A DNA stretch of 64,000 bases from an uncultured Candidatus Saccharibacteria bacterium. Lineage in GTDB: Bacteria > Patescibacteriota > Dojkabacteria > J137. Positions within the stretch are counted from its first letter, which is position 1. Each line of letters starts with the position of its first letter. Both the position numbers and the translations under genes were made by a program. The DNA is taken from positions 333,469 through 397,468 of the forward strand of contig CAZSKK010000001.1 of assembly GCA_964607415.1 (NCBI GenBank), read 5' to 3'. This document shows, in pieces, positions 1 to 59,931 of the stretch. The notes below the pieces were generated by a model, which did no database searches, was not told the DNA's origin, and saw nothing but the letters and a program-made list of their open reading frames with translations.

Positions 1-1046
1 CTGTTAAAAATAGCTGATCCGTGAACTGTTGGAAGAACATCAACTTCCGCACCTAATTCTCTAATTTCATCTAATTTTCTACCTGAAACTCTTTTATCTT
101 CTGATAATACACCTTCTCTTAGAATTTTTCTTGCAATGTATTCAACAGCATTATAAATATCGCCTTCTGAATATCCGGTTTCTTCTGTTGCATATTTTTC
201 TGTAATTTCTTTTTTTGCTAAAGCCAAGCCTTCGTTTTGTTCGTCTTTAATACCAGTGTACAAAGCCTTCTTTATTTCCTCGTATTTTTCTTTTTTTACA
301 ATATCTACAAGATCATGCGGAGCTGGAACATCATCATACTCTCTATCCGATTTGAAAACTTTTTGGCCACATTTTTTTACAAATTCAATTTGAAAGTCAT
401 TAAGTTTTTTAATGTAATCCATTGACTCATCCAGAAGCTTATCCATGTGCTCATCTGACACTTCTTTTGCCCAACCTTCCATGTTTAAAACTTTTCCAGT
501 AACACCAGAAACCACCATTTCAGCTAAAAGCTCTTCTCTACCCTCAACTTCTGGGTTAATTAGTATTGAACCATCGTGATTTATACAAGCAACAACACTT
601 GCGGAAGGACCCATAAATGGAATTCCTGACTGCATCAAAGCCATACTTGCACCCAAAACTGCTAATGCTTCTGGATCGTTAATTCCATCGTATGTTAGAA
701 CAGTTAGAATGATAGTTGTTGGCCTTTTAAAACTTTTTGGGAAAAGTGATCTGATTGAATGATCAACTTGTCTTGCTTTTATGATTGCTTCATCCGTTGG
801 GTTGCTTTCTCTTTTTTGATATCTGGAACCCGAAATTGCACCTCTTGCGTACATTTTCTCAATGTATTCAATTGTTAGTGGAAAAAAATCACCGTCTGTG
901 TCTCCTGCATCAATTCCAACTGTTGCAAATAAAGTTGTACCTCCCATTTGAAGCATAATACTTCCTGGTGCTTGATTGGCGATTTTGCCTGTAGACGCTT
1001 TAATCTCTTTTCCAGAGATTTTTAAGGTTAAACTAACCTCTGCCAT
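1..1046 (-). CDS. pnp: Polynucleotide phosphorylase (PNPase), N-terminal ~348 aa; the 3' part runs off the window
   Basis: Reverse translation from the ATG at 1046..1044 gives MAEVSLTLKISGKEIKASTGKIANQAPGSIMLQMGGTTLFATV... An RNase PH-like core is followed by a helical region and the start of a second core, ...GRKLDEIRELGAEVDVLPTVHGSAIFN at window positions 1-90. This matches the PNPase second-core motif (VLPRTHGSALFTRGETQ). The ORF is absent from the track because it is truncated at the window edge. Confidence 0.8.
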   Translation of the reverse strand, partial: MAEVSLTLKISGKEIKASTGKIANQAPGSIMLQMGGTTLFATVGIDAGDTDGDFFPLTIEYIEKMYARGAISGSRYQKRESNPTDEAIIKARQVDHSIRSLFPKSFKRPTTIILTVLTYDGINDPEALAVLGASMALMQSGIPFMGPSASVVACINHDGSILINPEVEGREELLAEMVVSGVTGKVLNMEGWAKEVSDEHMDKLLDESMDYIKKLNDFQIEFVKKCGQKVFKSDREYDDVPAPHDLVDIVKKEKYEEIKKALYTGIKDEQNEGLALAKKEITEKYATEETGYSEGDIYNAVEYIARKILREGVLSEDKRVSGRKLDEIRELGAEVDVLPTVHGSAIFN

Positions 1047-1344
1047 AAGAAAATTTTAAAAAATTAAAATTTCTCTTAAGGTAAAAGAAGTATTTTGAGT
1101 CGAAGAGGGAAGAAAACGTTAAAGCAATTTTTAAATAAACTTAATTTAGAAATTCAAAAAATTGTTTATCACTTTCTTCTCACTTCGATACTCTTTAATC
1201 TTTTCCTTAAGAGTTTGTTGATTATAGTATAGCCAGCCATGTCTGGCAATAACTAATTACTAAACTCAAATTACTAATAGGACTCCTATTTTAAATTAGT
1301 TATTCAATAGTAATATTAGTCAATATTATCATTTGATCTTTTCT

Positions 1345-2924: not shown

Positions 2925-4478
2925 CTATACGCTTTCTCCATCAAGGTATTCCTTGGCTAGTCTTAACAAATCAATCTTCTTATTATAAAGTGGTTCGTCT
3001 ATAACCTTTTCCAAAAGATAATTTAAAACTTTACCTAGAACTGGCCCTTGCTGCAATTCGAAGTTTTCCATTAAATCAGCACCTGTTATGTCTAAATCAG
3101 AAACTTTTAACGCCATGTCTTTTGCTCTTACCGACGCAATCCTTTCAGATAAAATATCGATATCTTTGGGGTCAAATTCGCTTTTGGGGTTTGAAGCTGC
3201 ATCTGCTATTCTTAGTTTCATCAAATCCTCAATTGCATCTTCGCCGCCGACATTTATTATCAATCTTCTTATAGCACCATCAGACCAACCGAACTGAGCC
3301 TTTGGCTCAGGATGACGAATGACGGATGACGAATTACGAGTAGTCTCACCCTGCTCGCTTTGCTCGCCACCCTCTCCATTAAGGAGAACTGAGGGTGAGG
3401 TGGTGGTACTCACGCCTTTGCGCCAGTCTGCAGATGGATAATAAAACATATGCCACCTTACAAGTCTTACTACTCTATCTATTTCAGCGTTAGAAAATTT
3501 AAGCCTTTTCATTATTTCTTTTGTCATTTCAGACCCCATAACATCATGGCCATAAAAGTGAATGCCCTTTTCATCGTCACTTTTGCATCTTGGCTTTGCA
3601 ATGTCGTGAAAAAGGGCTGCTAATTTTACTGAATCTTCAGCTTCATCTACAGCTTTAATTGAATGTGTAAAAACATCATCTGTATGGAATTGCGGCTGAA
3701 CTACTTCAACACCTTCCAAAAGTTCTGGAACAAACAGCTCAAGAATTCCTGAATCTTTTAATAAGTTTAATCCTTTGGAAGGCTTTGGAGATTTTAAAAG
3801 AAGTTTCATCAATTCATCTCTAAACCTTTCAACAGAAACCTGTTTTGTTATATGCAAGGTTTGTTTGATTGCTTCAAAAGTTTTGGTTTCGATTTCAAAA
3901 TCAAGTTGAGATGCAAGTCTACAAGCTCGAACTGATCTTAATCCATCTTCTGAAAATCTTTCGATTGGATCTCTTACTGCTTTAATTACTTTATTCTTTA
4001 AATCAAAAATTCCATTATAAGGATCAATCAGAATTTGTTGTACTGAGACATCTGAATCATCAAAATGTTGCAAGTCCAATGCTATAGAATTGATTGTAAA
4101 ATCTCTTCTTGCGAGATCTTCGTTAATAGTTTTTGTAAATTCTACTTTTGTGGGCCATCTTCCCCCCATGTAATCAGCTTCAGATCTAAACGTTGTAACT
4201 TGTACGTCAAATTTTTCGCCATTTTCATCTTCACCGATAACTGTTATAGTTCCAAACTTTGCTCCAGTTGGAATTGATTTAGGGAAAATCTTAGAAATTT
4301 CATCAGGGTTTGCATCTGTTGCGATATCATAATCTCCTGGTAGCTTTCCAAGCAATATATCTCTAATACTTCCGCCCACCAAATAAGCCTTAAAATTATA
4401 TCTTTGCAGTTCTTCGGCAATGTTTATTACATAGCTTGGAATCAGTTTTTGAAATTGTGGAATAGTTAAGTCGATCAT
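2925..4478 (-). CDS. cca: tRNA nucleotidyltransferase (CCA-adding enzyme / poly(A) polymerase family) with a C-terminal HD domain; contains an in-frame low-complexity insertion
   Basis: Pol-beta head motifs GGSIRDILLGKLPGDYDIAT and RRDFTINSIA are present, as is an HD domain (LAALFHDIAKP, YGHDVMGSE). The segment WRKGVSTTTSPSVLLNGEGGEQSEQGETTRNSSSVIRHPEPKAQ is encoded by a GC-rich repeat. Confidence 0.75.
   Translation of the reverse strand: MIDLTIPQFQKLIPSYVINIAEELQRYNFKAYLVGGSIRDILLGKLPGDYDIATDANPDEISKIFPKSIPTGAKFGTITVIGEDENGEKFDVQVTTFRSEADYMGGRWPTKVEFTKTINEDLARRDFTINSIALDLQHFDDSDVSVQQILIDPYNGIFDLKNKVIKAVRDPIERFSEDGLRSVRACRLASQLDFEIETKTFEAIKQTLHITKQVSVERFRDELMKLLLKSPKPSKGLNLLKDSGILELFVPELLEGVEVVQPQFHTDDVFTHSIKAVDEAEDSVKLAALFHDIAKPRCKSDDEKGIHFYGHDVMGSEMTKEIMKRLKFSNAEIDRVVRLVRWHMFYYPSADWRKGVSTTTSPSVLLNGEGGEQSEQGETTRNSSSVIRHPEPKAQFGWSDGAIRRLIINVGGEDAIEDLMKLRIADAASNPKSEFDPKDIDILSERIASVRAKDMALKVSDLDITGADLMENFELQQGPVLGKVLNYLLEKVIDEPLYNKKIDLLRLAKEYLDGESV
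3301..3420. repeat. GC-rich mosaic repeat element inserted in-frame in cca
   Basis: ggctcaggatgacgaatgacggatgacg...gtctcaccctgctcgctttgctcgccaccctctccattaaggagaactgagggtgaggtgg. It contains the inverted pair CTCACCCT/AGGGTGAG and modules (ccaccctctcc, gagcaaagcgag, gctcaggatgac) shared with elements at 5447, 7509, 16409, 22607 and 51588. Confidence 0.55.
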
Positions 4479-7508: not shown

Positions 7509-7563
7509 AATTCCGGACTTCACCTCTCCTTCGACAAGCTCAGGATCGTTGAATCCGGAATAA
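7509..7563. repeat. GC-rich palindromic intergenic element
   Basis: aattccggacttcacctctccttcgacaagctcaggatcgttgaatccggaata. An 8-bp inverted repeat (attccgga/tccggaat) flanks a core whose motif ccttcgacaRgctcagg recurs at 53171..53188. Confidence 0.45.
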
Positions 7564-15889: not shown

Positions 15890-16432
15890 ATGTTCGAAAT
15901 TAAAGAAGCAAATAGTGGTGATTTTGAACGTTTAAAACTTCTTATACTTGAGGCACTAAAAGAAGATCCCATCGCCTTTACTGTAACATTCGATGAGTAT
16001 AACCAAGGTAGTAATTCCTGGTGGCATTCTTTTTTAGATCCATACCTTTTACAAGATCATTCTAAATTATATATTGCAAAAAATAAAGATACAATTACTG
16101 GTATGATTGGAGTTCTTTTTTCAAGAAGAAGTAAACAAGAACATATTGCAACAATTGTTTGGTTTTATGTATCAAAAGAGTTCAGAGGAAATAAAGTTGG
16201 AAATGCATTATTTGAAAAATTACTAAATGATATAAGCGATATTAAGCGCATCAAAAAGATAACACTTAATGTAACAGCTACCCAGAAAGAGGCGCAAAAA
16301 ATTTATACAAAATATGGTTTTACTGTAGTTGGTGTTCTTAAAAATGACCTTCGCGAAAATGATACGTATCATGATATCGTTGTTATGGAAAAATATATAC
16401 GAAACCCTCACCCTAATGAGCAAAGCGAGTGA
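15890..16432 (+). CDS. GNAT-family N-acetyltransferase; the last ~8 codons are encoded by a GC-rich repeat
   Basis: FRGNKVGNALFEKLL and YTKYGFTVVG acetyl-CoA-binding motifs. Confidence 0.65.
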   Translation: MFEIKEANSGDFERLKLLILEALKEDPIAFTVTFDEYNQGSNSWWHSFLDPYLLQDHSKLYIAKNKDTITGMIGVLFSRRSKQEHIATIVWFYVSKEFRGNKVGNALFEKLLNDISDIKRIKKITLNVTATQKEAQKIYTKYGFTVVGVLKNDLRENDTYHDIVVMEKYIRNPHPNEQSE

Positions 16433-16475
16433 AGGGAGAGGGTGGCGAACGAACGTGAGCCGGGTGAGGGTGTTA
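16409..16475. repeat. GC-rich mosaic repeat bridging the GNAT stop and the ogg start
   Basis: cctcaccctaatgagcaaagcgagtgaagggagagggtggcgaacgaacgtgagccgggtgagggtg, with CCTCACCC...GGGTGAGG ends. Its modules match the reverse complement of the 3301..3420 element. Confidence 0.55.
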
Positions 16476-17344
16476 GGCCAAACAACTTAGCTCCTATGAA
16501 CAAAATATACTTACCAAACTACAATCTAAACACTACTTTGCTTGGTGGTCAATCATTTTCCTGGGAAGAAATTGATAAGTATTTTTACGGTTTTACACAA
16601 GATATGGTCATAAAATTAAAGCGTGAGAAAGACTTTTTATATTGGCAAACGTATCCTCAAAAAGATAATTTTGATTATTTAGCGACATATCTGCAAACTA
16701 ATTACGACTTTGAAACAAAAATAAAGCTGATTAATAAAGATAAACATATAAACTTAGCAATTGAGCAAAATAGAGGCTTAAGACTTTTAAAACAAGATTT
16801 TGAATTGACCACACTGTTTTTTATTTTATCTGCATTTAAAAATATTAAGGGGATACGGCATAGCGTAAAACTTTTATCAAAGCAACTTGGAGAAAAAGTC
16901 TTAGTTGATAATAAGGAATTTTATTTATTTCCTAAAACAGATACTATTGCAAATACTTCAGAACAAGAGCTTAAGAAATCGTCTATTGGCTACAGAGCCA
17001 AGTATTTAAAATTAACAAGTGAAATTCTTTTGAAAGAAAATATTTCTAGAAGTATTATTAATATGGATGAAACAGAGGCTAGAAAATTGCTGAAATCATT
17101 TCCAGGAATTGGAGATAAAGTTGCAGATTGTGTACTGACATTTGCTTTGGGATTTAGCACAACAACACCTTTAGATATCTGGGCAAAAAGAGTCTTAACT
17201 AACTTGTATGGACTTGATCCCAAAATGACTTACTTAGAGATGCGAGAATGGTTAAATAACTATTTTGAGGGCAACAGTGCACTTGCGGGTCAGTATTTGT
17301 TTGAGTATATTAGAAAACAAGGGAGATCAGTGTTGAAAAATTAA
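16442..17344 (+). CDS. ogg: 8-oxoguanine DNA glycosylase / AP lyase (OGG, HhH-GPD). The true start is probably the internal Met at 16496 (MNKIYLPNY), because the first 18 codons lie inside the GC-rich repeat
   Basis: OGG N-terminal domain (LGGQSFSWEE) and HhH-GPD (FPGIGDKVADCVLTFALG...TTPLDIWAKRV). Confidence 0.65.
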   Translation: MANEREPGEGVRPNNLAPMNKIYLPNYNLNTTLLGGQSFSWEEIDKYFYGFTQDMVIKLKREKDFLYWQTYPQKDNFDYLATYLQTNYDFETKIKLINKDKHINLAIEQNRGLRLLKQDFELTTLFFILSAFKNIKGIRHSVKLLSKQLGEKVLVDNKEFYLFPKTDTIANTSEQELKKSSIGYRAKYLKLTSEILLKENISRSIINMDETEARKLLKSFPGIGDKVADCVLTFALGFSTTTPLDIWAKRVLTNLYGLDPKMTYLEMREWLNNYFEGNSALAGQYLFEYIRKQGRSVLKN

Positions 17345-22000: not shown

Positions 22001-22606
22001 AGTGAATCTCAATTAATTGAATGGGAAAAGGAATTTATGGGTATTTTTATTTCAACTCATCCACTTGAAAACTATAAATGGATAACGCTTTTGAATGGAT
22101 TTAAAACTATATCTGAGATAGAGGCATTACATTCGGGTGATAATGTAAAATTTATGGGCATCATAAGTGGAATTAAAATTACGGCAACTAAAGCAGCAGG
22201 AGAAAAAATGGCAATTCTAACAATTGAGGACATGTCGGGAAAACATGAAGCAGTTTTGTTTCCTAAAAAATATTCAGAAATACTTTCAAAAAATTTATTA
22301 GTGGAAACGAAGCCAATTATTTTTGCAGGTGTAATTAATGAACGAAATGATAGAAGATCAATCGTAATAAATGAAATGGCGTTTGCAGAAATTGTGGATA
22401 AGCCAAAAACTTTAATACTAGATATTAGGGGTGTTGAAGACCAAAAAAAGCTTTCTAATATTAAACAATGTTTTTCTGACGAAGGTGACGTACAAGTGAA
22501 CATAATCTACGGAACGCAATCTGAGCCCAAAAGCATTACTAGAAAAAGCCATTTGACCGATGAACATTTTGAAATTTTGAGGGAGTTTATAAAGCGTACT
22601 TGGTAG
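19019..22606 (+). CDS. dnaE: DNA polymerase III alpha subunit
   Basis: 1195 aa. PHP domain HLHVHTEYSLLDG, polymerase core, and OB fold near the C-terminus. There is an acidic low-complexity insert, TSQEDDSSEESIDDSS. Confidence 0.9.
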   Translation: MSFTHLHVHTEYSLLDGVSKTPKLFEKVKELGMDSVAMTDHGVLYGAAEFWKLSKDFGINPIIGCEIYVAPLERTLRQPVNGIKYYHLLLLAKSLEGYQNLVKIVSIGQLEGMYYKPRVDKETLAKYSKGIICTSACMAGPLSRHILRGEFDQAEDWLRFLKGTYGEDFYLELQRHGYDGKDDLNINEYLVKNTSQEDDSSEESIDDSSQQKFANLKLREFAEKYKLPVVATTDAHYLNKEDKEVQTVLFAIKDGKLISDDTCRKGYEGTYIMSPEEMKLKFSDIPEAVDNTMVIADKIEHFGLKFERVQPRFWNIPKGSTAKSELKKQAYIGAVKKYTEYLNLKDKGDDVSVFENAIDKFSQNMFDDASKILTQELIDRLEYELMVIDKKGYNDYFLVVGDLMQFGRRNGILVGARGSAAGSVIAYVLDITNAEPIKWELYFERFLNLERPSPPDIDMDIQDDRRDEIIQYARDKYGEECVAAICTFGKLKTKAAIRDVSRVLGIDLKTADKLSKMVTVLFGKPFPISKMMEVDKEFAEIINSDENLQKMSSIVKKIEDLARHVSTHAAGYLITPEPITNYMALQRDAKDPEKIMTQMDGNFVDKLDFMKFDFLGLRTLTIIRNALEYIEQRHNKKIDITRVPENDPDTFALFSKGDTVGVFQFESPPMQQFLKDLQPETLEDICFLAAAYRPGPMKYIPDYILCKHGKKEPEYLIPELEPLLNKTYGFPIYQEQLLKICMELANFTLADGDVIRNALKKKQLDILKAKEPDFKKNFMDKFGYSQDIADKLWKQLEPFSDYGFNKAHSASYAVVAYWCAYLKAHYPIEFITALIHSDLENLERVTVDIKEAKRMGFKVSPPDINYSEVYFRPENEDTIRFGLGAIKNVGFKVCDEIVSERNKNGLFKSLADFTQRMGTKNANKRVLEALIKSGAMDEFGDRNALLQVIPEAIEIAAGKEKSKSLGQTDLFGSSDSSGDSISISILNLPKVEPVSESQLIEWEKEFMGIFISTHPLENYKWITLLNGFKTISEIEALHSGDNVKFMGIISGIKITATKAAGEKMAILTIEDMSGKHEAVLFPKKYSEILSKNLLVETKPIIFAGVINERNDRRSIVINEMAFAEIVDKPKTLILDIRGVEDQKKLSNIKQCFSDEGDVQVNIIYGTQSEPKSITRKSHLTDEHFEILREFIKRTW

Positions 22607-22691
22607 AGCCTCACCCGGCTTCACTTTGTTCAGCCACCCTCTCCAGTTTGGAGAGGGTAGTTTGAGCTTGCTCAAACTGGTGAGGCTACGG
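22607..22691. terminator. GC-rich palindromic element between convergent dnaE and relA-like genes; candidate bidirectional terminator
   Basis: gcctcacccggcttcactttgttcagccaccctctccagtttggagagggtagtttgagcttgctcaaactggtgaggc. It has nested inverted repeats (ccctctcca/tggagaggg, gtttgagc/gctcaaac, cctcacc/ggtgagg). Confidence 0.5.
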
Positions 22692-24167
22692 CTACTCTTC
22701 TCCCATCGCCCTTAAAGTCCTCCTAATCCTTGACTTTGTTTCTGCCATTTTACACTTTGCAAGCCAACCTCGATTTGTGTTTTTATGCTTTGTTGTAATT
22801 ACTTCGCACACATCTCCTGTTTGTAAAACATGATCCAATGTTACAATTTTTTTATTAATATACGCGCCATTACATCTGTCTCCAATTTGCGTATGAACTG
22901 CATAAGCAAAATCTAATGGAGTAGATCCCTTTTCCAAAATTACAACTTTTCCCTTGGGTGTAAAAACAAATACGCTTTCAGAAAATGCTTTAATTTTATA
23001 GGATTTAGTTGCTTCATCGGAGTTATTCTTCCAATCAACAAGTTCTTTGGTCCAAGTAAATGATTCTTTTTTAGAATTCATTTGGAGTTTGTATGCAATA
23101 TGGCTTGCGGGTCCAAATTCATTATATTCATGCATTTCAGCAGTTCTAATTTGAATTTCTGCAACAAAGCCATCAATATCTACTACTGTGTGAATAGATT
23201 TATATCCACTTGCTTTTGGCTTAATTATGTAATCGTCAAATTCTTCAGGGAAGTAGTCCCATTTTCCATGAATCAAACCTAAAACCAAGTAACACTCAGC
23301 CTCTGTATTTAAAATTACTCGAATTCCTAAAAGGTCTTTCAGTTTCTTAATGTGTGTTTCATTTAGAGTCTCGCCTTCATTCATATATTTCTTTTTTATT
23401 TTATTGTAGGTGCTACTATAATTTTTTGTTCTATAAGAAATGCTTACAGGCTTAACATTGTACTTTGATAATAGGTTCAAAATCTCATCCTCAACTTTTT
23501 TAAATATTGATTGGCTTTCCAAGTAAATTTTATCGGTATAAGATTTTATAAAATTATACTCTGTAGGATTTAAGATCTTTAATGCAGTGTTTTCAAATAT
23601 CGATTGAAAATGCCCCAATCCGAGATATTCACAAAGAGGCGCATACACAAGTTTTAATTTATATGCCTGATTCTTTTGAGTTTCGATTGGTAAAATATCA
23701 AGCGAAAAAGAATTATATAGTTTATTTGCAAGTCTGATTATTAAAATTCGAATATCTTCACTTGATGCAATCATAAGTTTTCTAAAGTTATCTGGATCTT
23801 CATTATGAAGTTCAAAACTTTCTGAATGCTCCTTAATCTGACTTAAACCATCAACAATAAATGCAACTTCTGTTCCAAACTTCTTATCTATTTCTTCAAT
23901 TGTTGCATGTTTTAAATCAACAATTTTGTGAAGCAGGCTTGCAATTACAGAAGTTGTGTCTAAATTAAGCTTTACAATATAGCTTGCAACAGTTAGCAAA
24001 TGTGTATCCATTGATTTGCCTGAAAGTCTTTTATCGTTCTTATGAAGTTCTGACGCATAATCAAACGCTTCTTTAATTTTTGAAACGTCGTATTTTATTA
24101 TTGAAGAATTTATTAGTTCTTCAAGTTCAGCAAAAGTTGTAATTTCGTTAAAGGTTAAGGTTTTCAT
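22692..24167 (-). CDS. relA: RelA/SpoT-family (p)ppGpp synthetase with a degenerate HD hydrolase domain and a TGS domain
   Basis: HD-like N-terminal region, but the site reads LLHKIV rather than LLHDV. Synthetase motifs DLLGIRVI and YKSIHTVVD...EIQIRTAEMHEYNEFGPASHIAYK are present. TGS domain: VFVFTPKGKVVILEKGSTPLDFAY. Confidence 0.8.
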   Translation of the reverse strand: MKTLTFNEITTFAELEELINSSIIKYDVSKIKEAFDYASELHKNDKRLSGKSMDTHLLTVASYIVKLNLDTTSVIASLLHKIVDLKHATIEEIDKKFGTEVAFIVDGLSQIKEHSESFELHNEDPDNFRKLMIASSEDIRILIIRLANKLYNSFSLDILPIETQKNQAYKLKLVYAPLCEYLGLGHFQSIFENTALKILNPTEYNFIKSYTDKIYLESQSIFKKVEDEILNLLSKYNVKPVSISYRTKNYSSTYNKIKKKYMNEGETLNETHIKKLKDLLGIRVILNTEAECYLVLGLIHGKWDYFPEEFDDYIIKPKASGYKSIHTVVDIDGFVAEIQIRTAEMHEYNEFGPASHIAYKLQMNSKKESFTWTKELVDWKNNSDEATKSYKIKAFSESVFVFTPKGKVVILEKGSTPLDFAYAVHTQIGDRCNGAYINKKIVTLDHVLQTGDVCEVITTKHKNTNRGWLAKCKMAETKSRIRRTLRAMGEE

Positions 24168-49757: not shown

Positions 49758-49820
49758 ATTTGTTAATTAGTAAAAGGTTAATTAGTGCCTAACCAATTAA
49801 CCGGCCACAAGTTAACTAAA
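49758..49820. promoter_or_regulatory. Conserved AT-rich operator-like motif, copy 1 (GTTAATTAG direct repeats plus TTAACCAATTAACC)
   Basis: tttgttaattagtaaaaggttaattagtgcctaaccaattaaccggccacaagttaactaaa, upstream of the gene at 49908 and closely matching 55714..55825. Confidence 0.45.
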
Positions 49821-51587: not shown

Positions 51588-51665
51588 CCTCACCCAATTC
51601 CGACTAATCGGAATTTCCCTCTCCATCTGGAGAGGGCGGCGAAGCCGGGTGAGACTATTTAGTAT
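51588..51665. terminator. GC-rich palindromic element between convergent genes (49908 gene and asnS); bidirectional terminator candidate
   Basis: gcctcacccaattccgactaatcggaatttccctctccatctggagagggcggcgaagccgggtgag. It has nested inverted repeats (ctcaccc/gggtgag, aattccga/tcggaatt, ccctctcca/tggagaggg). Confidence 0.5.
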
Positions 51666-52958
51666 TTATGGTCTTGTTAAAACTGTCGTTCTTGGGAACG
51701 CAATAGTCTCTCTAATATGGTGAACTCCACTTACCCACCTAACCATTCTTTCTAGTCCTAAACCAAAGCCACTGTGAACCACAGACCCATACTTTCTAAT
51801 GTTTAAGTACCACTCATAATCTGATACTGGATAGTTTCTCGCTTTCAGTTCCGCAAGCAGTTTGTCATAATCTTCTTCTCTTTGGCTCCCACCAATAATT
51901 TCTCGAGCTTCTTCTGGAGCAATTAAGTCCGCATTTCTTGCTCTAACCATTCCTTTATCATCTGTATATTTTTTCATGTAAAATGCTTTAACAGCAAATG
52001 GATAATCTTCAATAAATACTGGAACTCCAAAGTGATTTCCTATTTCGATTTCCTCCTCTGTGGTCATGTCGTCGTTATAATCAACCTTAAATCCTTTTTC
52101 TTCCATTAGCTTTTTAGCATCATAATGCTTCATTCTAACAAAAGGAGTGTTTACTGTTTTTTCCAGTACAGTTGTATCTCTTTCCAAAATTTCTAATTCA
52201 ACTTTACAGTTTTCAATACAATCTTTAAGAATCCTTTTTACCATTGCTTCTTGAACATCTTCATTCATTGATTGATCATGAAATGCCATTTCAGCATCCA
52301 TCATCCAAAATTCCGATAAATGATTTCTGGTCTTACTTTTTTCTGCTCTAAAAACGGGGCCAAAATCGTAAACTTTTCCAAAACTCATAATCGCAGCCTC
52401 ACTATAAAGCTGACCTGATTGAGTTAAATACATTTGATCTTCATAGTACTTTAGTGAAAATAGTTGAGTTGTATCCTCACAACTTGTTGGTTGCAAAATT
52501 GGAGTATCAAATCTAATAAAACCTTGCTCGTGATAAAAGTTTGTAATAGATCTAAAAACCTGATCTCTGATTCTTAAAACAGCCCAAGGAGTTTTTGATC
52601 TTAAATACAAATCCCTGTTTTCAAATAAAAATTCTGGCCCATGTTCTTTTTTACCAATTGGGAAATCTTCTGATTTTCCAATAAGTTTAACTTCTGAAAC
52701 TTGAATTTCATATTCTTCTTTTTTAGGATGTTTAGAGATTGTGCCATTAATTTCAACTGATGATTCTAAACCTAGTTCTTCAGCATACTTCCAAGTCTCT
52801 TCTGAAACTTTATCTTTTTCTACAACCGCTTGAATAAATCCTGACCCATCACGTAACTGCAAGAATGCTATTTTCCCAGAGGATCTTTTATTGTACATCC
52901 AGCCTTTAAAGATGATTGATCTATCTACGAACTCTTTTGCTTTTGAAATTGTGAACAT
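51666..52958 (-). CDS. asnS: Asparaginyl-tRNA synthetase
   Basis: 430 aa, class IIb. Motif 2 is FRAEKSKTRNHLSEFWMMDAEMAF (EFWM is AsnRS-like). Motif 3 is GGSQREEDYDKL...YGSVVHSGFGLGLERMV...AFPRT (GSVxHSGFG and the FPRT end are AsnRS-like). Confidence 0.75.
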   Translation of the reverse strand: MFTISKAKEFVDRSIIFKGWMYNKRSSGKIAFLQLRDGSGFIQAVVEKDKVSEETWKYAEELGLESSVEINGTISKHPKKEEYEIQVSEVKLIGKSEDFPIGKKEHGPEFLFENRDLYLRSKTPWAVLRIRDQVFRSITNFYHEQGFIRFDTPILQPTSCEDTTQLFSLKYYEDQMYLTQSGQLYSEAAIMSFGKVYDFGPVFRAEKSKTRNHLSEFWMMDAEMAFHDQSMNEDVQEAMVKRILKDCIENCKVELEILERDTTVLEKTVNTPFVRMKHYDAKKLMEEKGFKVDYNDDMTTEEEIEIGNHFGVPVFIEDYPFAVKAFYMKKYTDDKGMVRARNADLIAPEEAREIIGGSQREEDYDKLLAELKARNYPVSDYEWYLNIRKYGSVVHSGFGLGLERMVRWVSGVHHIRETIAFPRTTVLTRP

Positions 52959-53207
52959 ATATTTTAAGATATAAGTAATAAGTTATGAGTAACTAGTTTT
53001 ATTTTTAGCTAATAGCTTATAGCTAATAGTTAAACCATTTACTTCCCCTGAGAATGCATATTATGCATTCGAATGTAGCTAACTTAGCTCCACTCAACAG
53101 CACAATGTGCTGTTTCGGGATGAGGTATAAGATAAATAAGCTGTTAAAACTTTCTGCTCAGCTAGGATTCCCTTCGACAGGCTCAGGGTAAACTCCAAAG
53201 TAATAAT

Positions 53208-53290
53208 CTGGCATGGTAGGACTCGAACCCCAAACAGTATATTATACTGTTTGGCAAAACATAAGTTCTATATTAATTTGAACTTATGTA
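53208..53290 (-). other. tRNA 3'-end-like fragment (GGGGTTCGAGTCCTACCATGCCAG) preceded by two perfect 10-11 bp hairpins; a second tRNA-Asn 3'-end-like fragment lies at 53140..53180
   Basis: The minus strand reads ACATAAGTTC-aaattaatata-GAACTTATGT TTTG CCAAACAGTAT-aata-ATACTGTTTGG GGTTCGAGTCCTACCATGCCAG, which resembles the tRNA-Asn T-arm/acceptor (CTAGGTTCGAATCCTAGCTGACCAG). At 53148..53162 the plus strand reads gctcagctaggattc, compared with ggtcagctaggattc in the tRNA itself. No complete cloverleaf can be drawn. Confidence 0.3.
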
Positions 53291-53298
53291 AACAGAAA

Positions 53299-53370
53299 CT
53301 GGTCAGCTAGGATTCGAACCTAGAGTCTTCCCGTTAACAGCGGGATGCAATACCATTATGCTACTGACCA
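53299..53370 (-). tRNA. tRNA-Asn (anticodon GUU)
   Basis: Reverse complement: TGGTCAG-TA-GCAT-AATGGTAT-TGC-AT-CCCG-CUGUUAA-CGGGA-AGACT-CTAGG-TTCGAAT-CCTAG-CTGACCA-G. The acceptor is a perfect 7 bp. The anticodon loop is C-U-GUU-A-A. The T-loop is GGTTCGAATCC, the discriminator is G, and CCA is not encoded. Confidence 0.85.
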
Positions 53371-53379
53371 TTATAGCTT

Positions 53380-53412
53380 TTGTGTCACTCTGAGGGAAAT
53401 CGAAGAGTGACA
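53380..53412. other. Perfect 10-bp hairpin immediately upstream (5') of tRNA-Asn
   Basis: gtgtcactct-gagggaaatcgaa-gagtgacac. Confidence 0.4.
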
Positions 53413-53470
53413 CACTTAAAACCATACGTCATAGTTCAATTTCCTCCACTACGACATTGTATAAAAACAA

Positions 53471-53500
53471 AAAAACTCCTTTTTCCCAGGAGTTTTATTA
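53471..53500. terminator. Intrinsic terminator hairpin with T-tracts on both strands, downstream of aspS
   Basis: aaaactcct-ttttccc-aggagtttt. On the minus strand it is followed by tttgttttt. Confidence 0.5.
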
Positions 53501-53667
53501 TTCTTAACAACAATAAAAGCTCCGGTTTAGGAGTTGTTATTATTATTGTTATTATTAGCTTTCTTGAACATAAATAAATTATACCAATGAGTTAATCAAA
53601 TAACAAGACTACTGTCCTTCCGAAGCAACCTATGCATGTAAATGAATACAGAATGACACCGCGGAAT

Positions 53668-55464
53668 TCACACTGAAAAATCACCTAGAATTGGATTAAC
53701 CGCATCAACTAAATCTTTAGCCTTCATTTCAATTGAGCAGGTTCTTTTGCCACAGTTAAAGTCAACTGTTTCGTTATTTAAAATCTTTTCATCAAAATAC
53801 GTTTTTAAGCCTAAAAGATTCCCTAGTGGAGGAACTCCACCAACTTGAATTCCAAATTTTTCTAAAATCACTTCTGGTTTTTCAAATTCAATTGCTTCTC
53901 CCAAAATTTCTTTTGCTTTAGTCATATCTAGTTTTAAGTGAGCTGGCATTACAAACATAAAGTTCTCGCTAGATTTCTTGCCTTTAACAATTAGAGCCTT
54001 AGCTCCTTCTTCAATTTTGGTTCCTCTAACTCTACTTGCATCTTCACTTGTTACAACTTCTTCATGTTCATCGTATTCATATTTAAAACCAAATTTATCT
54101 AAATGTTTTTTTATTTGCTCTGTAACATCAATATTTTTGTTGAATTTTCTTTTGATTGGAACACCAGCAATTCGCTTTGTGTCTGATGGGAACAAAACTG
54201 TCTCTCTGATATTTTCTAAACCTAGAAGCTGTAGAGTAAATCTTTCAAGGCCAATCCCAAACCCTCCATGTTTTGGCATACCGTATTTGAATATTGATAG
54301 ATAATCCGTAAAATCTTCCGGATTTAAACCCTTCATTTTTAAACTTTCTACCAAATCATCGTATTTATCAATTCTTTGGCCTCCACTTGAAACTTCAGTT
54401 CCATTACAAATTAAATCCCCGTAGTTACAAACCAGTGGATTTTCTTCATTTGGTTTTGCATAAAATGCACATTTTGTTCTTGGGAAGTGAGTAACAAAAA
54501 TAAAATCAATTCCAAATTTTTCTTTAGCATATTTACATATAAATCTTTCCGCATCAGGCGAAAGATCATTTTCATTTCTTTCATCTTTGCCTGTTGCTTC
54601 AAAATATAGTTCTAGTGCTTCTTTTAATGTAACTTTTGGAATTGTAATCTCATCTTTAAGAGTTGCAAAATTAGGAAAGAGTTTAATTTCTTCAGCACAT
54701 TTTTCCAGAACTTTTTTATACATTGCTTTAATTACTTTTTCCTCCCACTCCAAAACTTCATCAAATTTTTCAATAAATCCAACTTCAAATTCAAACTGAG
54801 TTGCTTCTGTAATATGTCTTCTGGTATTTGATTTTTCAGCTCTAAAGCACTTCAAAGTTCCAAAAACTCTTTCAAAAACACCAACCATCATTTGTTTATA
54901 TAGTTGGTTTGATTGAGCTAATTTTGCTTCAACACCAAAGTAATCGACAGTAAAAAGTTCTGCCCCACCCTCACTTGAAGCTCCAATAATGGCAGGTCCC
55001 ATAAACTCTGTAAATCCTTGAGATATAAGATATTCTCTATATCCTTCTAAAATTGCAGCTTGAATCTTAAAAACTGCACTGATTTTTTCATTCCTTAAAG
55101 TTAGCGGTCTATAATCTAAAATTGTATCAATGTGAGCATTAATTTCTGGTTTATTAACTTCAACAGGCCAAGGTTCCGTTATAGCATTTTCAATTGTAAT
55201 TTCAGGATTAGTGATTTCAAAACCAAGCTCTGCTTGTGAATTTTCTTTTACAATTCCAAAAATTTTTATAATTGATCCAGGCTGAAGTGTACTTAAATTT
55301 TTTATATCATCCGCATTTTCAACAAAAACCTGAACCAAACCGCCTCTATCTCTTAAAATTAAAAAAGCAATTTTTCCAAGTTTCCTAAAGTTATGTAACC
55401 AACCTTTTATATAGACTTTTTCGCCCACTTTTTCTTGGCACTCAGTAGATATTATTCGTTCCAC
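53668..55464 (-). CDS. aspS: Archaeal/eukaryal-type aspartyl-tRNA synthetase fused to a C-terminal YbaK/ProX-like aminoacyl-tRNA deacylase domain
   Basis: 598 aa. N-terminal OB fold. Motif 2 is FRAEKSNTRRHITEATQFEFEVGF. Motif 3 is SSGGQRIDKYDDLVESLKMKGLNPEDFTDYLSIFKYGMPKHGGFGIGLER...LFPSD (compare archaeal AspRS GMPPHGGFGLG...FPRD). An extra ~150-aa C-terminal domain has ALIVKGKKS..FMFVMPAHLKLDMTKAKEILG, FGIQVGGVPPLGN and FNCGKRTCSIEMKAKDL, matching the YbaK blocks (YKTLLV.., GYLVGGISPLG, VSGGKRGLDIEL). Confidence 0.75.
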   Translation of the reverse strand: MERIISTECQEKVGEKVYIKGWLHNFRKLGKIAFLILRDRGGLVQVFVENADDIKNLSTLQPGSIIKIFGIVKENSQAELGFEITNPEITIENAITEPWPVEVNKPEINAHIDTILDYRPLTLRNEKISAVFKIQAAILEGYREYLISQGFTEFMGPAIIGASSEGGAELFTVDYFGVEAKLAQSNQLYKQMMVGVFERVFGTLKCFRAEKSNTRRHITEATQFEFEVGFIEKFDEVLEWEEKVIKAMYKKVLEKCAEEIKLFPNFATLKDEITIPKVTLKEALELYFEATGKDERNENDLSPDAERFICKYAKEKFGIDFIFVTHFPRTKCAFYAKPNEENPLVCNYGDLICNGTEVSSGGQRIDKYDDLVESLKMKGLNPEDFTDYLSIFKYGMPKHGGFGIGLERFTLQLLGLENIRETVLFPSDTKRIAGVPIKRKFNKNIDVTEQIKKHLDKFGFKYEYDEHEEVVTSEDASRVRGTKIEEGAKALIVKGKKSSENFMFVMPAHLKLDMTKAKEILGEAIEFEKPEVILEKFGIQVGGVPPLGNLLGLKTYFDEKILNNETVDFNCGKRTCSIEMKAKDLVDAVNPILGDFSV

Positions 55465-55713
55465 AGTAATATGATTAAATAATAAAGATTATAGATTAAC
55501 GACTAAAGAAAATCTTTAATTTACAAACATCAGTTTTAAAAACTGAGAATTCTTTAAAACTTGTCCTGAACTAGTTTCAGGATTGTACTTTGAAAATTAT
55601 TTTGAATGCTTTGATCTTGATTATTTGGGCTCATTCGTGCTCTTTACCTCTCTACCTTTTCTAAGTATACTATTCAAAGATTATAGCAAAAATGAAAGAA
55701 TAGAAGAGTTAAT

Positions 55714-55825
55714 TTGTTAATTAGTCTCAGGTTAATTAGTAAAATACGAATTAACTTTTTTACTAGTTAACCAATTAACCTATGCAATATAAACTCAAAA
55801 CCCTTAACCCGTTAACTCTTAAACT
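55714..55825. promoter_or_regulatory. Conserved AT-rich operator-like motif, copy 2
   Basis: tttgttaattagtctcaggttaattagtaaaatacgaattaacttttttactagttaaccaattaacc...cccgttaactc, upstream of the gene at 55832. Confidence 0.45.
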
Positions 55826-55831
55826 TTTCAT

Positions 55832-56581
55832 ATGAATGATGCACAAATTACAGACCAGGAATTTAAGAAATATATAAAAAGACTTGTAAATATTAATCGA
55901 AAAAGAAATGTTGCCTTCAGGGGACTTATTAATGGGGTTTTTACAGCCATCGGAGCGACCTTGGGATTTGCTATTGTGCTTGTAATAACCGCCCAACTTC
56001 TTTCAAGTTTAAGGCAAGTGAGCATAATCGATCAATTTTTAAGCGAAACTAAACTTGATGTTTTAATCGAATCTCAACTTAAGCAAATCCAGCAAGAAGA
56101 ATTAAAACAAGAAGAAAATTCCGAGGAAGGCACAAATGATAATAAAGATACAAATTCAGAAGACCAACCTTATTATTTGAGTTATGAAAATAAGGCTCTG
56201 GATTTAACTTTCAACTATCCTGCCAGTCTTACAAATTTTAGTGAGTATGATATTAATTCTACAAACAGCAATGATTCTTTTATCCTTTCTTTTGAAGGAT
56301 TCGGAATCATAAAAAGTCTTGTTGTTTATATTAACCCTGACAGTGTTGATTTAATAGGAAGCTCGCAAAGTTATGATGTAGAATCAACTTTGGAAGAAAA
56401 ATCGAAAGTCCTTATTTATGAAAAAGGTGCAACAGTAAATGGTGACGAAGTATCTGACCCTGTTTTATACTTCAAGTTCACCAAAGGGGCTAACAATTTT
56501 TATATGATTGCTAAAGCTGACAGTTCAACACCTAAGATAGCAAGAGAGATTTTCTTAACAGTTGCTGAGAGTATAAGATAG
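55832..56581 (+). CDS. Hypothetical N-terminally anchored exported protein
   Basis: TM FTAIGATLGFAIVLVITAQLL, then an acidic hydrophilic domain. Confidence 0.4.
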   Translation: MNDAQITDQEFKKYIKRLVNINRKRNVAFRGLINGVFTAIGATLGFAIVLVITAQLLSSLRQVSIIDQFLSETKLDVLIESQLKQIQQEELKQEENSEEGTNDNKDTNSEDQPYYLSYENKALDLTFNYPASLTNFSEYDINSTNSNDSFILSFEGFGIIKSLVVYINPDSVDLIGSSQSYDVESTLEEKSKVLIYEKGATVNGDEVSDPVLYFKFTKGANNFYMIAKADSSTPKIAREIFLTVAESIR

Positions 56582-56744
56582 GCTACAAGCGCGACTCAGG
56601 TTAAAGGTTTGTGCAGTATGAGTCACGATATGTCGGGAATTGCAATACAAATCCGTCAACATCATGTGTCTACTTCGAATTTTTTCGAAGTGACAGTAAT
56701 TAAGAAATTTTTTCTTATTATGCCTTGTTCCTTATACCTTACTT

Positions 56745-57518
56745 TTATTTCACCTTCTTAACCTCTCCACTTCCTGAAATATTCTGGCTGAAATTATCAG
56801 GATCACCTTTGTAGGAGATTTTCCCACTACCTGAAATATTTATATCTAACTTCTTTTCGGCTGAAATTTCTGCTTCAGCTGAACCACTTACATCTATTTC
56901 CGTTTCTTTTGTCTCTAAGTCTAATGCTAAATATTTTCCGGATCCACTTATATTTATGTCTTGTTTATCTGCAACTCCAAAAAGTGTAAGTTCACCGCTA
57001 CCACTAATATCGACATTAAGCTCTTTTATTTTTACCTCCAACTCGACGACTCCGGACCCGTTAATATCAACTTTTAGCTTATCTGTATTTAAAACGTAGT
57101 TATTTGCACCCTTAAAACTAGCCGAGCCATTAACTTTTAGCTCTTCTAAATCTGTGGTTGTTATTTTTATTCTGATTTTGTCCGATGGTTTATAGTTCTT
57201 TGAAAAAATCATTGCTATGTCATTTTTGAAATCGATAACAAGTCTTCTTCCTGAAACATTAGCTTCTATTCCTTTGATAATATTATCATCTGATTCAATT
57301 TCAATTTTTTCTTTCGAACCTTCTTCAATAACAACTTCCGCTGGTATATTAACAGTAACCTTTCTAAAAATCTTAAGATTTCTTGATTCAGACTCTATAA
57401 TTCCTGAACCTTTAACAGTATTAGCTTTAGAATAAATATAAAGTCCAAAAACTACTGCAGAAAGAAGAAAACAAAAAATACTTAAAAGTACTATTAAAAC
57501 AATGCTGACTTTTTTCAT
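56745..57518 (-). CDS. Exported repeat protein (DUF2807 / putative adhesin head-like beta-helix repeats)
   Basis: N-terminal TM. Repeated units are I-x-(I/V)SGSG-x-(L/V), including DINISGSGKYLAL, DISGSGELTLFG, IDVSGSAEAEISA, INGSGVVELEV and DINISGSGKISYKG. Confidence 0.45.
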   Translation of the reverse strand: MKKVSIVLIVLLSIFCFLLSAVVFGLYIYSKANTVKGSGIIESESRNLKIFRKVTVNIPAEVVIEEGSKEKIEIESDDNIIKGIEANVSGRRLVIDFKNDIAMIFSKNYKPSDKIRIKITTTDLEELKVNGSASFKGANNYVLNTDKLKVDINGSGVVELEVKIKELNVDISGSGELTLFGVADKQDINISGSGKYLALDLETKETEIDVSGSAEAEISAEKKLDINISGSGKISYKGDPDNFSQNISGSGEVKKVK

Positions 57519-57906
57519 ACTGAAAGTATTGATAATAACTAGAATGTAGTATTAGTATAGAATATAGACAAATTTAAAGCAATTTGAGGTCAATCTGAAG
57601 TATAAAGCTAGAAATCTTTAGCTTTAGGCATTGGGTTTTAGTTTTGTTGCTTGGGGCCCCTTGCAACAGTTCAACAAGATTGTATTTTTTATGGTTCGCG
57701 TACATCTTCAACCTTGTTTTGAACTTACAAATGTTAACAATTACAAAAAATCTGGTCAATGAAATTGTGAAGAGAATATGATATGTTTAAACTAGATTGG
57801 CTATATTAGCATTATATTGTAATAAGCCGTCATCATGAATTCATTTCAGGATCTTGCGTTAATCCAAAAAATGCCATACCAAGTTTAGCATGGTGTCTTT
57901 CTTTTG

Positions 57907-59931
57907 TTAGTACTTTCTCAAACTTTCAATACTTGTTTGTTCTGGAGCTACTTTTCTTTCAACTTGAACTGGTTTTTGATTTGTATACAAAGGCATTCCA
58001 AAACTAAATACACTGCCTTCCCCGACTTTACTTTGAACATCTAAAATTCCTTCCATTATCCTTATAAGATTGAATGAAACGTAAAGTCCTAGACCGGTAC
58101 CACCTGGTCTCACAATTGATGCTGGATCGCCTGGATCTCCTGTATACTGCTTTGCACGAAAGAACTTTCTTCCAAGCTTTTTTAAATCCTGCTCATCAAT
58201 ACCGATCCCAGAATCTCTAACATGCACCCAACCAAAGTTATCCTTAACTTCAACAGATATTTCTACAAAACCTTTAGGAGTGTATTTAATTGCGTTTCCA
58301 ATAAAGTTATCTGCAACTTCTTGAATTCTTGTTCTATCGCAGTAAACAAATACGTCCTTTTCTGGCTTTTGATACTTAATTTCAAGGCCTCGCTTAATTG
58401 CTTGACCTTTTAAAGCTTCCAACGAATCATTAATAACATCCAAAAGATCAACCTTTTCAATAGCCAATTGAAAGCCTTTGCTGTCTGCTTTTGTTGCAGA
58501 AAGAAGTGTTTCAATAAGGTTAATTTCTCGTTTTGCAGATTCAATTGCTGCATCTACATATTTTTGTTGTTTATCTAAAGGAATAGAACCTTCCTTTTTT
58601 AAGTGAAGCTCCATCATGCCTAAAGCATTTCTAACAATAGACATTGGAGTTCGAAGTTCATGTCCCATAATGTCAATCATATCCCGTTCACGCTCGCGGG
58701 CAATTTGAAGTTCGCTTAGTGCTATCTCCAGATTATTTTTAACTCTTTCAACTTCTGTAAATAATCTTGCATTTTCTAGTGCAATACCAATTTGAGTTGT
58801 ATATGTTTGCAATAGTTGCTTTTGATTTTCTTCCAATTCTTCAGACCCTTTATCCTTTATCAGATAACCTATTGTTCCTACAATTCTGCCCCTAGAAAAT
58901 ACTGGATACACTGCTATGGATTTTACGTTTATAATTCTAAGAAGTGGTGTTATCAATGTTTTTGGAATTGGTGGTGAAAAAGCATTTATAAGGTCATTAG
59001 AAAACTGCGGTTCCCCTGAAAGGATAGCTTTCACAGTAGGCGTTCCAACTGCAGCTGGGTCTTTTACAAAAGTTTCATATTTTTTAAAGTCTCCCAGTAA
59101 ATTTCTTGCAGCATCTGAAATTCTGTTTCTTGTTAATGCTTTGACTGTAATTGAACCTTCTAAAGAGTCGTAATCAGTAAGAATACCACCTATCATCATT
59201 TGATCTTGTGGCAAAGAATCAACAGCAGTTTGACTTACTACATCAGGATCCAATGATTTACTGATTTGAGAAGTTAGGTTGTAGAGGGAGGCAAGTTCAT
59301 TTGCCTTCAAACGTATAGTATGGAGCTGATTATTTTTTTCTTCGAAAGATTGAGCATTGAAAATGGCGATTGCAACTTGAGATGAATAGATTTTTAATAA
59401 ATCAAAGTCGGAACTAAAAGATTCATCTTTTAGCTTAGTAAACATTATTACACCTAAACAGTCAGTTCTGTATATTAATGGTAATGACACAATTCTTTTT
59501 GTTCTGCTTAGATTCTGCAAAATGTTTGCAACATTAGACGTTATTGTAGGAACAATAAAATCTGCAAGATTCTCAGATTCCTTAATTTCTTTGTCTAAAA
59601 ATGTTCTAACAATAAAGTTGGATTTTTCTGCAATAGAAACATTAAGACTATCAAATGATCCACCAATAAGCCTTTTCGTAAGCAAGTTATTAATAGCCTT
59701 ATTAGTAAATGTCTTACTATAAATTTTTTGCGCTTTATCATTATATAAAAAAACTACCGCACTATCATACTTCAGTTTATTTACAATTATATCCACAGAC
59801 TTTTGTAATATTTCGTCAAGGCTTAAGCTAGTACCTATCAAATTGCCAACGTCAATAACAGCAGCGTACTTAGACTGAACAATCTGGGTGTCCATTTGAC
59901 TATTTGTTATTGTTTTTCTAGAACCAAACAT
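57907..59931 (-). CDS. Cytoplasmic sensor histidine kinase with tandem GAF-like domains
   Basis: 674 aa. H-box MGHELRTPMSIV and HATPase_c (VRDSGIGIDEQ, GGTGLGLYV). No TM segments. Confidence 0.8.
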   Translation of the reverse strand: MFGSRKTITNSQMDTQIVQSKYAAVIDVGNLIGTSLSLDEILQKSVDIIVNKLKYDSAVVFLYNDKAQKIYSKTFTNKAINNLLTKRLIGGSFDSLNVSIAEKSNFIVRTFLDKEIKESENLADFIVPTITSNVANILQNLSRTKRIVSLPLIYRTDCLGVIMFTKLKDESFSSDFDLLKIYSSQVAIAIFNAQSFEEKNNQLHTIRLKANELASLYNLTSQISKSLDPDVVSQTAVDSLPQDQMMIGGILTDYDSLEGSITVKALTRNRISDAARNLLGDFKKYETFVKDPAAVGTPTVKAILSGEPQFSNDLINAFSPPIPKTLITPLLRIINVKSIAVYPVFSRGRIVGTIGYLIKDKGSEELEENQKQLLQTYTTQIGIALENARLFTEVERVKNNLEIALSELQIARERERDMIDIMGHELRTPMSIVRNALGMMELHLKKEGSIPLDKQQKYVDAAIESAKREINLIETLLSATKADSKGFQLAIEKVDLLDVINDSLEALKGQAIKRGLEIKYQKPEKDVFVYCDRTRIQEVADNFIGNAIKYTPKGFVEISVEVKDNFGWVHVRDSGIGIDEQDLKKLGRKFFRAKQYTGDPGDPASIVRPGGTGLGLYVSFNLIRIMEGILDVQSKVGEGSVFSFGMPLYTNQKPVQVERKVAPEQTSIESLRKY

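Follow-up and report, generated by a model that had tools for sequence, protein, structure and literature searches.

Transfer RNA (tRNA)-like regulatory mimics occur in the leaders of synthetase genes, as in the thrS operator of E. coli and in T-box leaders. Fragments of tRNA genes that stem from mobile-element integration or from spacer capture by CRISPR (clustered regularly interspaced short palindromic repeats) loci are well documented (PMC9897764), and partial tRNA genes flank integrated elements as attL/attR repeats, for example the PYG1 island at tRNA-Gln in Pyrococcus yayanosii (PMC9897764). The locus described here lies in a 64 kb stretch of DNA (positions 333,469 to 397,468 of contig CAZSKK010000001.1), which is called the window and is numbered from its first letter. 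It contains a single tRNA-Asn(GUU) gene that is followed, on the same strand, by two short pieces of tRNA-Asn sequence embedded among perfect hairpins. The reading that we prefer, and that we hold with about as much belief as doubt, is that these pieces are non-functional fossils of earlier tRNA-Asn copies, left behind when the single tRNA-Asn gene repeatedly underwent local turnover.

Results

Two tRNA-Asn fragments downstream of the resident gene

The initial annotation had placed a tRNA-Asn(GUU) gene between asnS and a gene for an AspRS-YbaK protein, all on the minus strand, and this was borne out by ARAGORN, Rfam and Pfam. It had also pointed to two segments downstream of the tRNA that resemble its 3' T-arm and acceptor; both proved to be derived from tRNA-Asn, and the second, given as 53148-53162, is real but longer, covering 53154-53170. 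The interspersed perfect hairpins were recovered by a repeat search with stems of 10-12 base pairs (bp), and the other copy of a GC-rich module, noted at 7530, was located at 7528-7545 on the minus strand. The elements concerned are given below, where other sequences are referred to by L numbers and the sister strains are L087-L092 and L101, whose asparaginyl-tRNA synthetase (AsnRS) is 94-95% identical to that of the window.

53299-53370, minus strand: resident tRNA-Asn(GUU), allele A1, acceptor UGGUCAG/CUGACCA, discriminator G73 (ARAGORN; Rfam RF00005, 70.5 bits)
53208-53231, minus strand: fragment 2 (B3'), GGGGTTCGAGTCCTACCATGCCAG, a single occurrence in the window
53154-53170, minus strand: fragment 3, GAATCCTAGCTGAGCAG, identical at 16 of 17 positions to the last 17 nucleotides (nt) of the resident tRNA
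53259-53289, minus strand: perfect 10-bp hairpin ACATAAGTTC/GAACTTATGT followed by TTTT, directly 3' of the tRNA (repeat search; present in the minimum-energy fold)
53230-53254, minus strand: perfect 12-bp palindrome CCAAACAGTATA-A-TATACTGTTTGG (hpR), abutting fragment 2 (repeat search)
53085-53117, minus strand: third palindrome, AAACAGCACATTGTGCTGTT + GAGTGGAGCTA, 27/31 identical to L087 857-887, with a hairpin at 53096-53115
53381-53414, minus strand: perfect 11-bp hairpin just upstream of the tRNA (repeat search), kept in the sister strains (alignment)
53171-53188, minus strand: GC-rich hairpin module CCCTGAGCCTGTCGAAGG, of the form CCCT-gagcctgtcga-AGGG, directly 5' of fragment 3
7528-7545, minus strand: second copy of the GC-rich module, two mismatches, inside the hairpin TTCCGGA...TCCGGAA, intergenic after a phosphoketolase gene

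Fragment 2 comprises 22-24 nt and consists of the 3' part of a T-arm, the acceptor 3' strand CATGCCA and a discriminator G. Fragment 3 is a direct repeat of the resident tRNA from the middle of the T-loop to the discriminator, 128 nt downstream of that gene. In the 340-nt spacer that separates the tRNA from asnS, chance would give 3e-7 occurrences of a 17-mer with at most one mismatch and 4e-7 of the pattern GGTTCGARTCC-N8-CAG of fragment 2. None of 5000 shuffles of the spacer came nearer than 3 mismatches to the 17-mer. Set against shuffled controls, as had been proposed, the fragments thus lie far beyond the shuffles, and the chance expectation for their identity or near-identity to parts of real tRNA-Asn genes is below 1e-6. 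The tRNA finders, also part of the proposed check, gave one tRNA only: ARAGORN predicted exactly one in the 64 kb window, Rfam returned the same single match, and neither predicted a second complete tRNA in the region. From 53140 to 53298 no ARAGORN or Rfam match was obtained, even at E <= 10. A second tRNA or a transfer-messenger RNA was likewise considered, and ARAGORN found none in the window.

Logan assemblies from other samples match positions 53084-58464 base for base. This implies that the tRNA, both fragments and the hairpins, which are identical on these independent contigs, do not stem from an error of assembly. None of the independent contigs spans 53084-53113 on its own, which is the one point in favour of an artefact; together with the expected counts given above, the Logan contigs effectively refute both an artefact and a chance resemblance. 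In many samples, unitigs coming from the asnS side (L001, L002 and L004) and those coming from the opposite, tRNA side (L005 plus 7 contigs like it) all break off within one 30-mer of the third palindrome, 53084-53113. This suggests a structural variant or branch, or a repeat, at this position in natural populations.

Fragment 2 stems from a different tRNA-Asn allele

L086 and L094-L098 contain complete tRNA-Asn(GUU) genes that start with UGGCAUG or UGGCGUG and whose 3' end matches the 22-mer of fragment 2 exactly. Because the 22-mer ends complete tRNA-Asn genes elsewhere, fragment 2 can be assigned to the T-arm, acceptor strand and discriminator of a distinct allele, B (acceptor UGGCAUG/CAUGCCA); as judged from its sequence, it is the genuine 3' end of that allele and not of the resident A1. 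The carriers of the 22-mer are one viral contig, where it lies near an RtcB gene, and five metagenomic multi-tRNA arrays, which look phage-like. In the viral contig (L086 8986-9160 and 9451-10647) the tRNA-Asn is followed after ~150 nt by a T-arm-like element, GGCTGGTTCGATTCCAGC, and then by the gene for the RtcB RNA ligase, an arrangement that resembles the YrlA/Y-RNA-RtcB modules of some bacteria. The 5' partner of fragment 2 (TGGCATGTAGCGCAATGG, with at most 3 mismatches) is absent from the window, which rules out a split or permuted tRNA there.

The other end of allele B is found in the sister strains. Their flank from aspS to the tRNA is collinear with the window and 88% identical, and at the very base where the tRNA of the window starts they carry 70 extra nt. 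These consist, in order, of TGGCATGTAGCGCAATGG, the palindrome AAACAGCATATTATGCTGTTT and then GTGGAGCTA..., after which the sisters' own tRNA-Asn begins. TGGCATGTAGCGCAATGG corresponds to the 5' acceptor strand of allele B, U8-A9, the 5' D-stem and the D-loop, and it is complementary to the CATGCCA of fragment 2. The palindrome beside it (in L087) is 19/21 identical to the one that abuts fragment 2 in the window, and the sister palindrome together with GTGGAGCTA, placed in L087 after the B 5' fragment and before the tRNA, agrees with window positions 53085-53115 at 27/31 positions. All differences among the three palindromes are compensatory, so that perfect complementarity is kept, and the palindromes are situated at junctions. 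On this sequence evidence, a dead allele-B gene has left one end in each of two sister lineages, and both ends adjoin palindromes of one family.

A composite of the B 5' fragment, the palindrome and the B 3' fragment was considered as an intact tRNA-like gene, and no locus with the intact composite was found. As a functional tRNA-like gene it was rejected, for its lengths and its anticodon loop misalign with a real tRNA; it is retained as a possible ancestral dead gene. The palindromes were also considered as LexA-like operators, which was rejected on the reasoning that the half-sites stand in the reverse order and that the inner positions covary.

The resident genes differ as well. The tRNA bodies of A1 in the window and of the sister allele A2 are 91% identical, and all four acceptor pairs 4-7/66-69 differ, fully compensated. 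The acceptor stem and the 3' 22-mer of A1 are identical in L103, whose AsnRS is only 79% identical, and A2 resembles the tRNA-Asn of L102 and L007. The comparison indicates that the resident tRNA-Asn genes themselves have been exchanged. These data are what would favour a cassette-like diversification, in which an active recombination system swaps acceptor-stem alleles, for instance to escape phages, integrases or toxins that target tRNAs: four compensated pair differences separate strains with 95% identical AsnRS and 91% identical tRNA bodies, the alleles are common to distant lineages, and the population branch point falls exactly within a palindrome. No recombinase was found, however, both acceptor strands would have to be exchanged jointly, the fragments are decayed and lineage-specific, and ordinary recombination with sorting of paralogues accounts for the same data. 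We therefore consider such a system very unlikely.

The segment is absent from the closest relatives

In the sister strains the tRNA-Asn is followed by an unrelated spacer of 118 nt in which no 3' fragments were found. (In L087 this spacer contains, at 985-1015, four 7-nt periodic repeats, TTAGACG TTAGATG TTTGACG TAAGACG.) As the closest relatives lack the whole segment, the fragment region of the window appears dispensable. This bears on the other explanation offered by the initial annotation, a tRNA-derived structured RNA. Such an RNA would act within the tRNA-Asn-asnS transcript, either as a tRNA-Asn mimic to which AsnRS or RNase P/Z binds, so as to tune processing or the expression of asnS, or as terminator or processing hairpins. 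The region lies inside a probable attenuator-controlled operon (see below), the 340-nt spacer folds much more stably than its shuffles (z = -4.8), the palindromes keep perfect pairing through compensatory changes, and the layout of a GC hairpin followed by T-loop and acceptor 3' strand recurs in several clades. Yet the spacer is a plain one in the closest relatives and measures merely 20-70 nt in several species, no acceptor/T minihelix can form without a 5' acceptor partner, and the fragments differ in sequence and position among lineages. In an Rfam scan by E-value of 52900-53720 just the tRNA passed, and other matches, T-box included, remained far below their gathering scores. The proposal thus found no support, and a functional RNA is unlikely. 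From the absence of the fragments in relatives and from their lack of structure we infer that they are non-functional.

Relics surround tRNA-Asn genes across Dojkabacteria

A census of 20 Dojkabacteria loci was made with the 3'-end pattern [GA]A[AGT]TCC-N8-CAG and the 5'-end pattern TGR-N4-TAGC, counting matches on the same strand within 500 nt of the resident tRNA; expected 3'-pattern counts were derived from how often the pattern occurs in 285 kb of control sequence. There were 8 such matches to the 3' pattern, all downstream of the resident tRNA-Asn (~0.7 expected), and 6 to the 5' pattern (~0.55 expected). One match of each kind belongs to a complete second tRNA copy in L034. The remaining five 5' matches are all situated upstream of the resident gene and represent four independent loci, L014, L028, L029 and L087 (L088 being of the same strain type as L087). 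All fragments are co-oriented with the resident tRNA-Asn. In L014 and L029 both kinds are nested around the working gene. The 5' fragment of L014 is identical to the resident at 17/17 positions, and that of L028 adjoins an assembly gap and calls for caution. The relic of L008 reaches back to the anticodon loop (GCTGTTAACGG) and has a hairpin inserted. In L034 (1-350) a perfect 224-nt tandem duplication with flanks carries two intact, identical tRNA-Asn genes.

Relics and resident genes share acceptor strands across loci: CTACTCA belongs to the resident gene in L008 and to the relic in L012, and the 3' strand CGTCTCA belongs to the resident gene in L034 and to the relics of L008, L030 and, with one mismatch, L029. 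In the AsnRS tree, at least 5 clades include relic-bearing loci, which are thus scattered, and the sequence and position of the fragments vary between lineages. Five relics (window, L012, L014, L029 and L030) have R57 of the T-loop as their common first position, with a GC-rich hairpin ahead of it; the motif GCYTGTC...GAAKG is common to the window, L014 and L030, and related GC-rich hairpins adjoin the relics in L014, L028, L029 and L030. The spacer between tRNA-Asn and asnS is hypervariable, with orphan open reading frames (ORFs) in L029, L030, L034 and L020. In L016 a 3-kb insert separates the tRNA from asnS, and within it, directly downstream of the tRNA-Asn (916-1827, minus strand), lies a gene for a homologue of a phage-type 5-hydroxymethyldeoxyuridine (5-hmdU) DNA kinase (PF18723, phrog_2396).

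Across 803 kb of Dojkabacteria DNA, the GC-rich module of the window has just 3 true copies, namely 53171-53188, 7528-7545 and one in L022 that is placed 3 nt before the L022 tRNA-Asn. The second copy in the window compares with an expectation of 0.01 by chance. The idea of a highly dispersed repeat gains little from 3 copies in 803 kb. The window also contains GC-rich intergenic repeats of the type CCCTCTCC..GGAGAGGG..GGTGAG, at 3343-3437, 16423-16483, 22594-22712 and 51615-51659, in a genome of 33% GC. The last of these lies between asnS and a DUF2334 gene, and the same place in L103 holds an IS200-like Y1 transposase gene.

Integration scars or tRNA gene turnover

The initial annotation had suggested a relic attachment site (att). 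That the fragments are relics derived from tRNA-Asn was upheld; the mechanism of integration and excision was not demonstrated. In the window and the related loci examined no integrase or island was found, IMG/VR gave no attP-like match, and there is no indication of a mobile element at the locus today. In its classical form this explanation states that an element with a tyrosine or serine recombinase used the segment from the T-loop to the 3' end, that a core of 17-22 nt was duplicated, and that integrase and cargo were later deleted. The 128 nt bounded by the tRNA and fragment 3 would then be the remnant, fragment 2 would come from a previous host, and the GC-rich module would be a former attP arm. 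Integration of mobile elements is known to produce fragments of tRNA genes (PMC9897764). Fragment 3, a 16/17 direct repeat from mid T-loop to discriminator, has the textbook layout of a core, and it is the only one of the two fragments that directly repeats the 3' segment of the resident tRNA. The common T-loop start beside a GC-rich hairpin in five lineages, with a motif shared by three of them, the hypervariable spacers with their orphan ORFs and the 3-kb insert of L016 with its phage-type kinase, and the occurrence of allele B in a viral contig and multi-tRNA arrays point in the same direction.

Against this, no integrase, excisionase or transposase was detected among the 37 ORFs of the window that were scanned, nor in the spacer ORFs of the relatives examined; beside asnS in L103, as mentioned, there is a Y1_Tnp (IS200-like) gene. 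No ORF fits in the 128 nt between the repeats, and the tRNA 3' end has no distant direct repeats in the window that might serve as the borders of an island. An attP search in IMG/VR gave no match for the resident 22-mer or for the 22-mer of the L008 relic, and the 17-mer of the resident and fragment 3 gave two matches at chance level, both in coding DNA without a tRNA. The segment is missing from the sister strains, but these differ in the entire spacer and hence offer no clean empty site. For fragment 2 and most relics, pairing with the resident 5' acceptor strand would be impossible, and they are therefore not displaced ends of the present gene. Finally, integration at the 3' end leaves the upstream 5' fragments of L014, L028, L029 and L087 unexplained. 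An origin from integration scars has real support, for fragment 3 in particular, but is less likely than not.

A classical duplication of a 3' end at an att site predicts less than is seen, namely 5' and 3' pieces nested around the gene, foreign alleles, a tandem duplicate in L034 and palindromes at the junctions. These features fit turnover of the tRNA-Asn gene followed by palindrome-associated deletion. The fragments lie on the same strand and in the same order as expected of a decayed tandem duplicate, and L034 provides intact tandem copies. In the proposed course of events, the tRNA unit would be duplicated in tandem or in part, and/or its allele replaced through recombination; the perfect tandem duplicate of L034 would represent the first step. 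Deletions and small insertions would follow. As palindromes promote slippage and rearrangement, the endpoints of these events may fall in the GC-rich hairpin modules and the perfect palindromes. The tRNA-Asn gene is apparently essential and present in one copy, so that selection would keep solely those rearrangements that leave one intact tRNA-Asn gene, and this need would strand 5' pieces upstream and 3' pieces downstream of the working gene.

Several points weigh against such turnover. The history cannot be reconstructed step by step. Allele B is found upstream of the resident gene in L087 and downstream of it in the window, which requires a B-A-B-A-like array or extra rearrangements. The regular breakpoints, that is the starts at R57 and the end of fragment 3 at the discriminator, fit a site-specific enzyme better than random deletion. 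The phage-type kinase in L016 and the presence of allele B in a viral contig and in multi-tRNA arrays of phage-like appearance hint at mobile DNA. It is also conceivable, though very unlikely, that the tRNA-Asn locus of Dojkabacteria undergoes an active and selected turnover of alleles, in which acceptor-stem variants, among them the one otherwise known here just from a viral contig and multi-tRNA arrays, would be swapped repeatedly by recombination at the palindromes and the stranded pieces would be by-products or substrates; conflict with integrases, phages or tRNases would then be the driver.

Gene order and a putative attenuator

The following features surround the tRNA-Asn gene.

51666-52958, minus strand: asnS, asparaginyl-tRNA synthetase (Pfam tRNA-synt_2 and OB anticodon-binding domain; homologues are asparagine--tRNA ligases of Candidatus Dojkabacteria)
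53668-55464, minus strand: AspRS-like class II synthetase fused to a YbaK/tRNA_edit domain (Pfam)
53462-53606, minus strand: putative Asn attenuator ahead of tRNA-Asn and asnS, with a promoter-like site, leader ORF, alternative hairpins and terminator

The window has a G+C content of 33%, and its AsnRS groups with Candidatus Dojkabacteria (Patescibacteria, candidate phyla radiation or CPR), the best species representatives showing 72-80% AsnRS identity. On the minus strand the order is AspRS-YbaK fusion, tRNA-Asn(GUU), asnS. The 709-nt intergenic region between the two synthetase genes contains the sole tRNA of the window, and asnS begins 340 nt downstream of it; the position of tRNA-Asn upstream of asnS is conserved in Dojkabacteria. 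The resident gene does not encode its CCA end, with which the presence of a gene for a CCA-adding enzyme in the window (2925-4478) is in keeping. A tRNA_edit domain is also present in some Dojkabacteria AsnRS homologues (615-628 aa; proteins P0008 and P0112).

Ahead of the tRNA, a promoter-like TTGTTA-17-TG-TATAAT at 53578-53606 is followed after 7 nt by the leader ORF MFKKANNNNNNNNS (53527-53571) with eight consecutive Asn codons, and this in turn by mutually exclusive hairpins, an antiterminator at 53486-53526 and an intrinsic terminator at 53472-53496. In the full-length fold the run of Asn codons pairs with the next segment and the terminator forms, whereas the alternative hairpin at 53486-53526 (-14 kcal/mol, z = -4.8) sequesters the 5' arm of the terminator. 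An Asn-rich leader peptide and a terminator precede tRNA-Asn in 17/20 Dojkabacteria loci, and the terminator lies 2-31 nt from the tRNA where 5' insertions are absent. From these predicted structures the region looks like a ribosome-mediated attenuator that would govern both the tRNA gene and the cognate synthetase. No description of an Asn-leader attenuator of this kind was found in the literature searched. Elsewhere around the locus, a 44-nt motif (ATTTGTTAATTAGT..GGTTAATTAGT..AATTAAC) occurs at 49758-49801 and at 55712-55755, with 80% identity between the copies, in two divergent-promoter regions that flank the locus; it could be a shared operator.

Discussion

Partial tRNA genes run the risk of being mis-annotated as tRNAs or over-read as islands, and the locus described here can be annotated as debris. 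The comparison shows that the apparently single tRNA-Asn gene of these small CPR genomes is, despite its conserved operon, a recurrent breakpoint, and that tRNA-Asn alleles are replaced faster than the neighbouring synthetase diverges, a modest point on the evolution of tRNA genes. The main value of the locus may lie in the Asn-codon leader attenuator, which apparently controls a tRNA gene together with its synthetase and which is probably more interesting than the fragments.

In the literature searched, nothing relevant on tRNA fragments in Dojkabacteria was found. With islands flanked by att repeats it shares a complete tRNA and a partial 3' copy on the same strand, and fragment 3 has the layout of a core from T-loop to discriminator. 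It differs from them in having 128 nt between the repeats, no integrase or cargo, fragments of another allele, and 5' fragments upstream of the gene in relatives.

The short near-perfect hairpins and GC-rich palindromic modules in an AT-rich genome, and the Y1_Tnp gene beside asnS in L103, are reminiscent of REP/PATE repeats (Y1, IS200/RAYT), and REP/PATE-like elements are one possibility for the GC-rich modules. Unlike such repeats, they number only 2 to 3 copies, the window yielded no Y1 transposase, and a conserved REP-like head motif is not apparent; the AAACAG..CTGTTT palindrome has 2 copies in the window, both at the tRNA-Asn locus. As in the thrS operator and T-box leaders, tRNA-derived sequence is found upstream of the cognate synthetase gene. 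Unlike those mimics, it offers nothing that could fold as one, it is not conserved in the closest relatives, and the Rfam scan shows no T-box. As in pseudogenes that arise from tandem duplication of tRNA genes, isotype, strand and tandem order are the same, and L034 has the intact duplicate, whereas the fragments at this locus comprise only 17-24 nt, are bounded by palindromes and GC-rich modules, and have strongly different acceptor stems. The locus adds one more instance of debris from tRNA genes, and one for which the comparative record is unusually rich.

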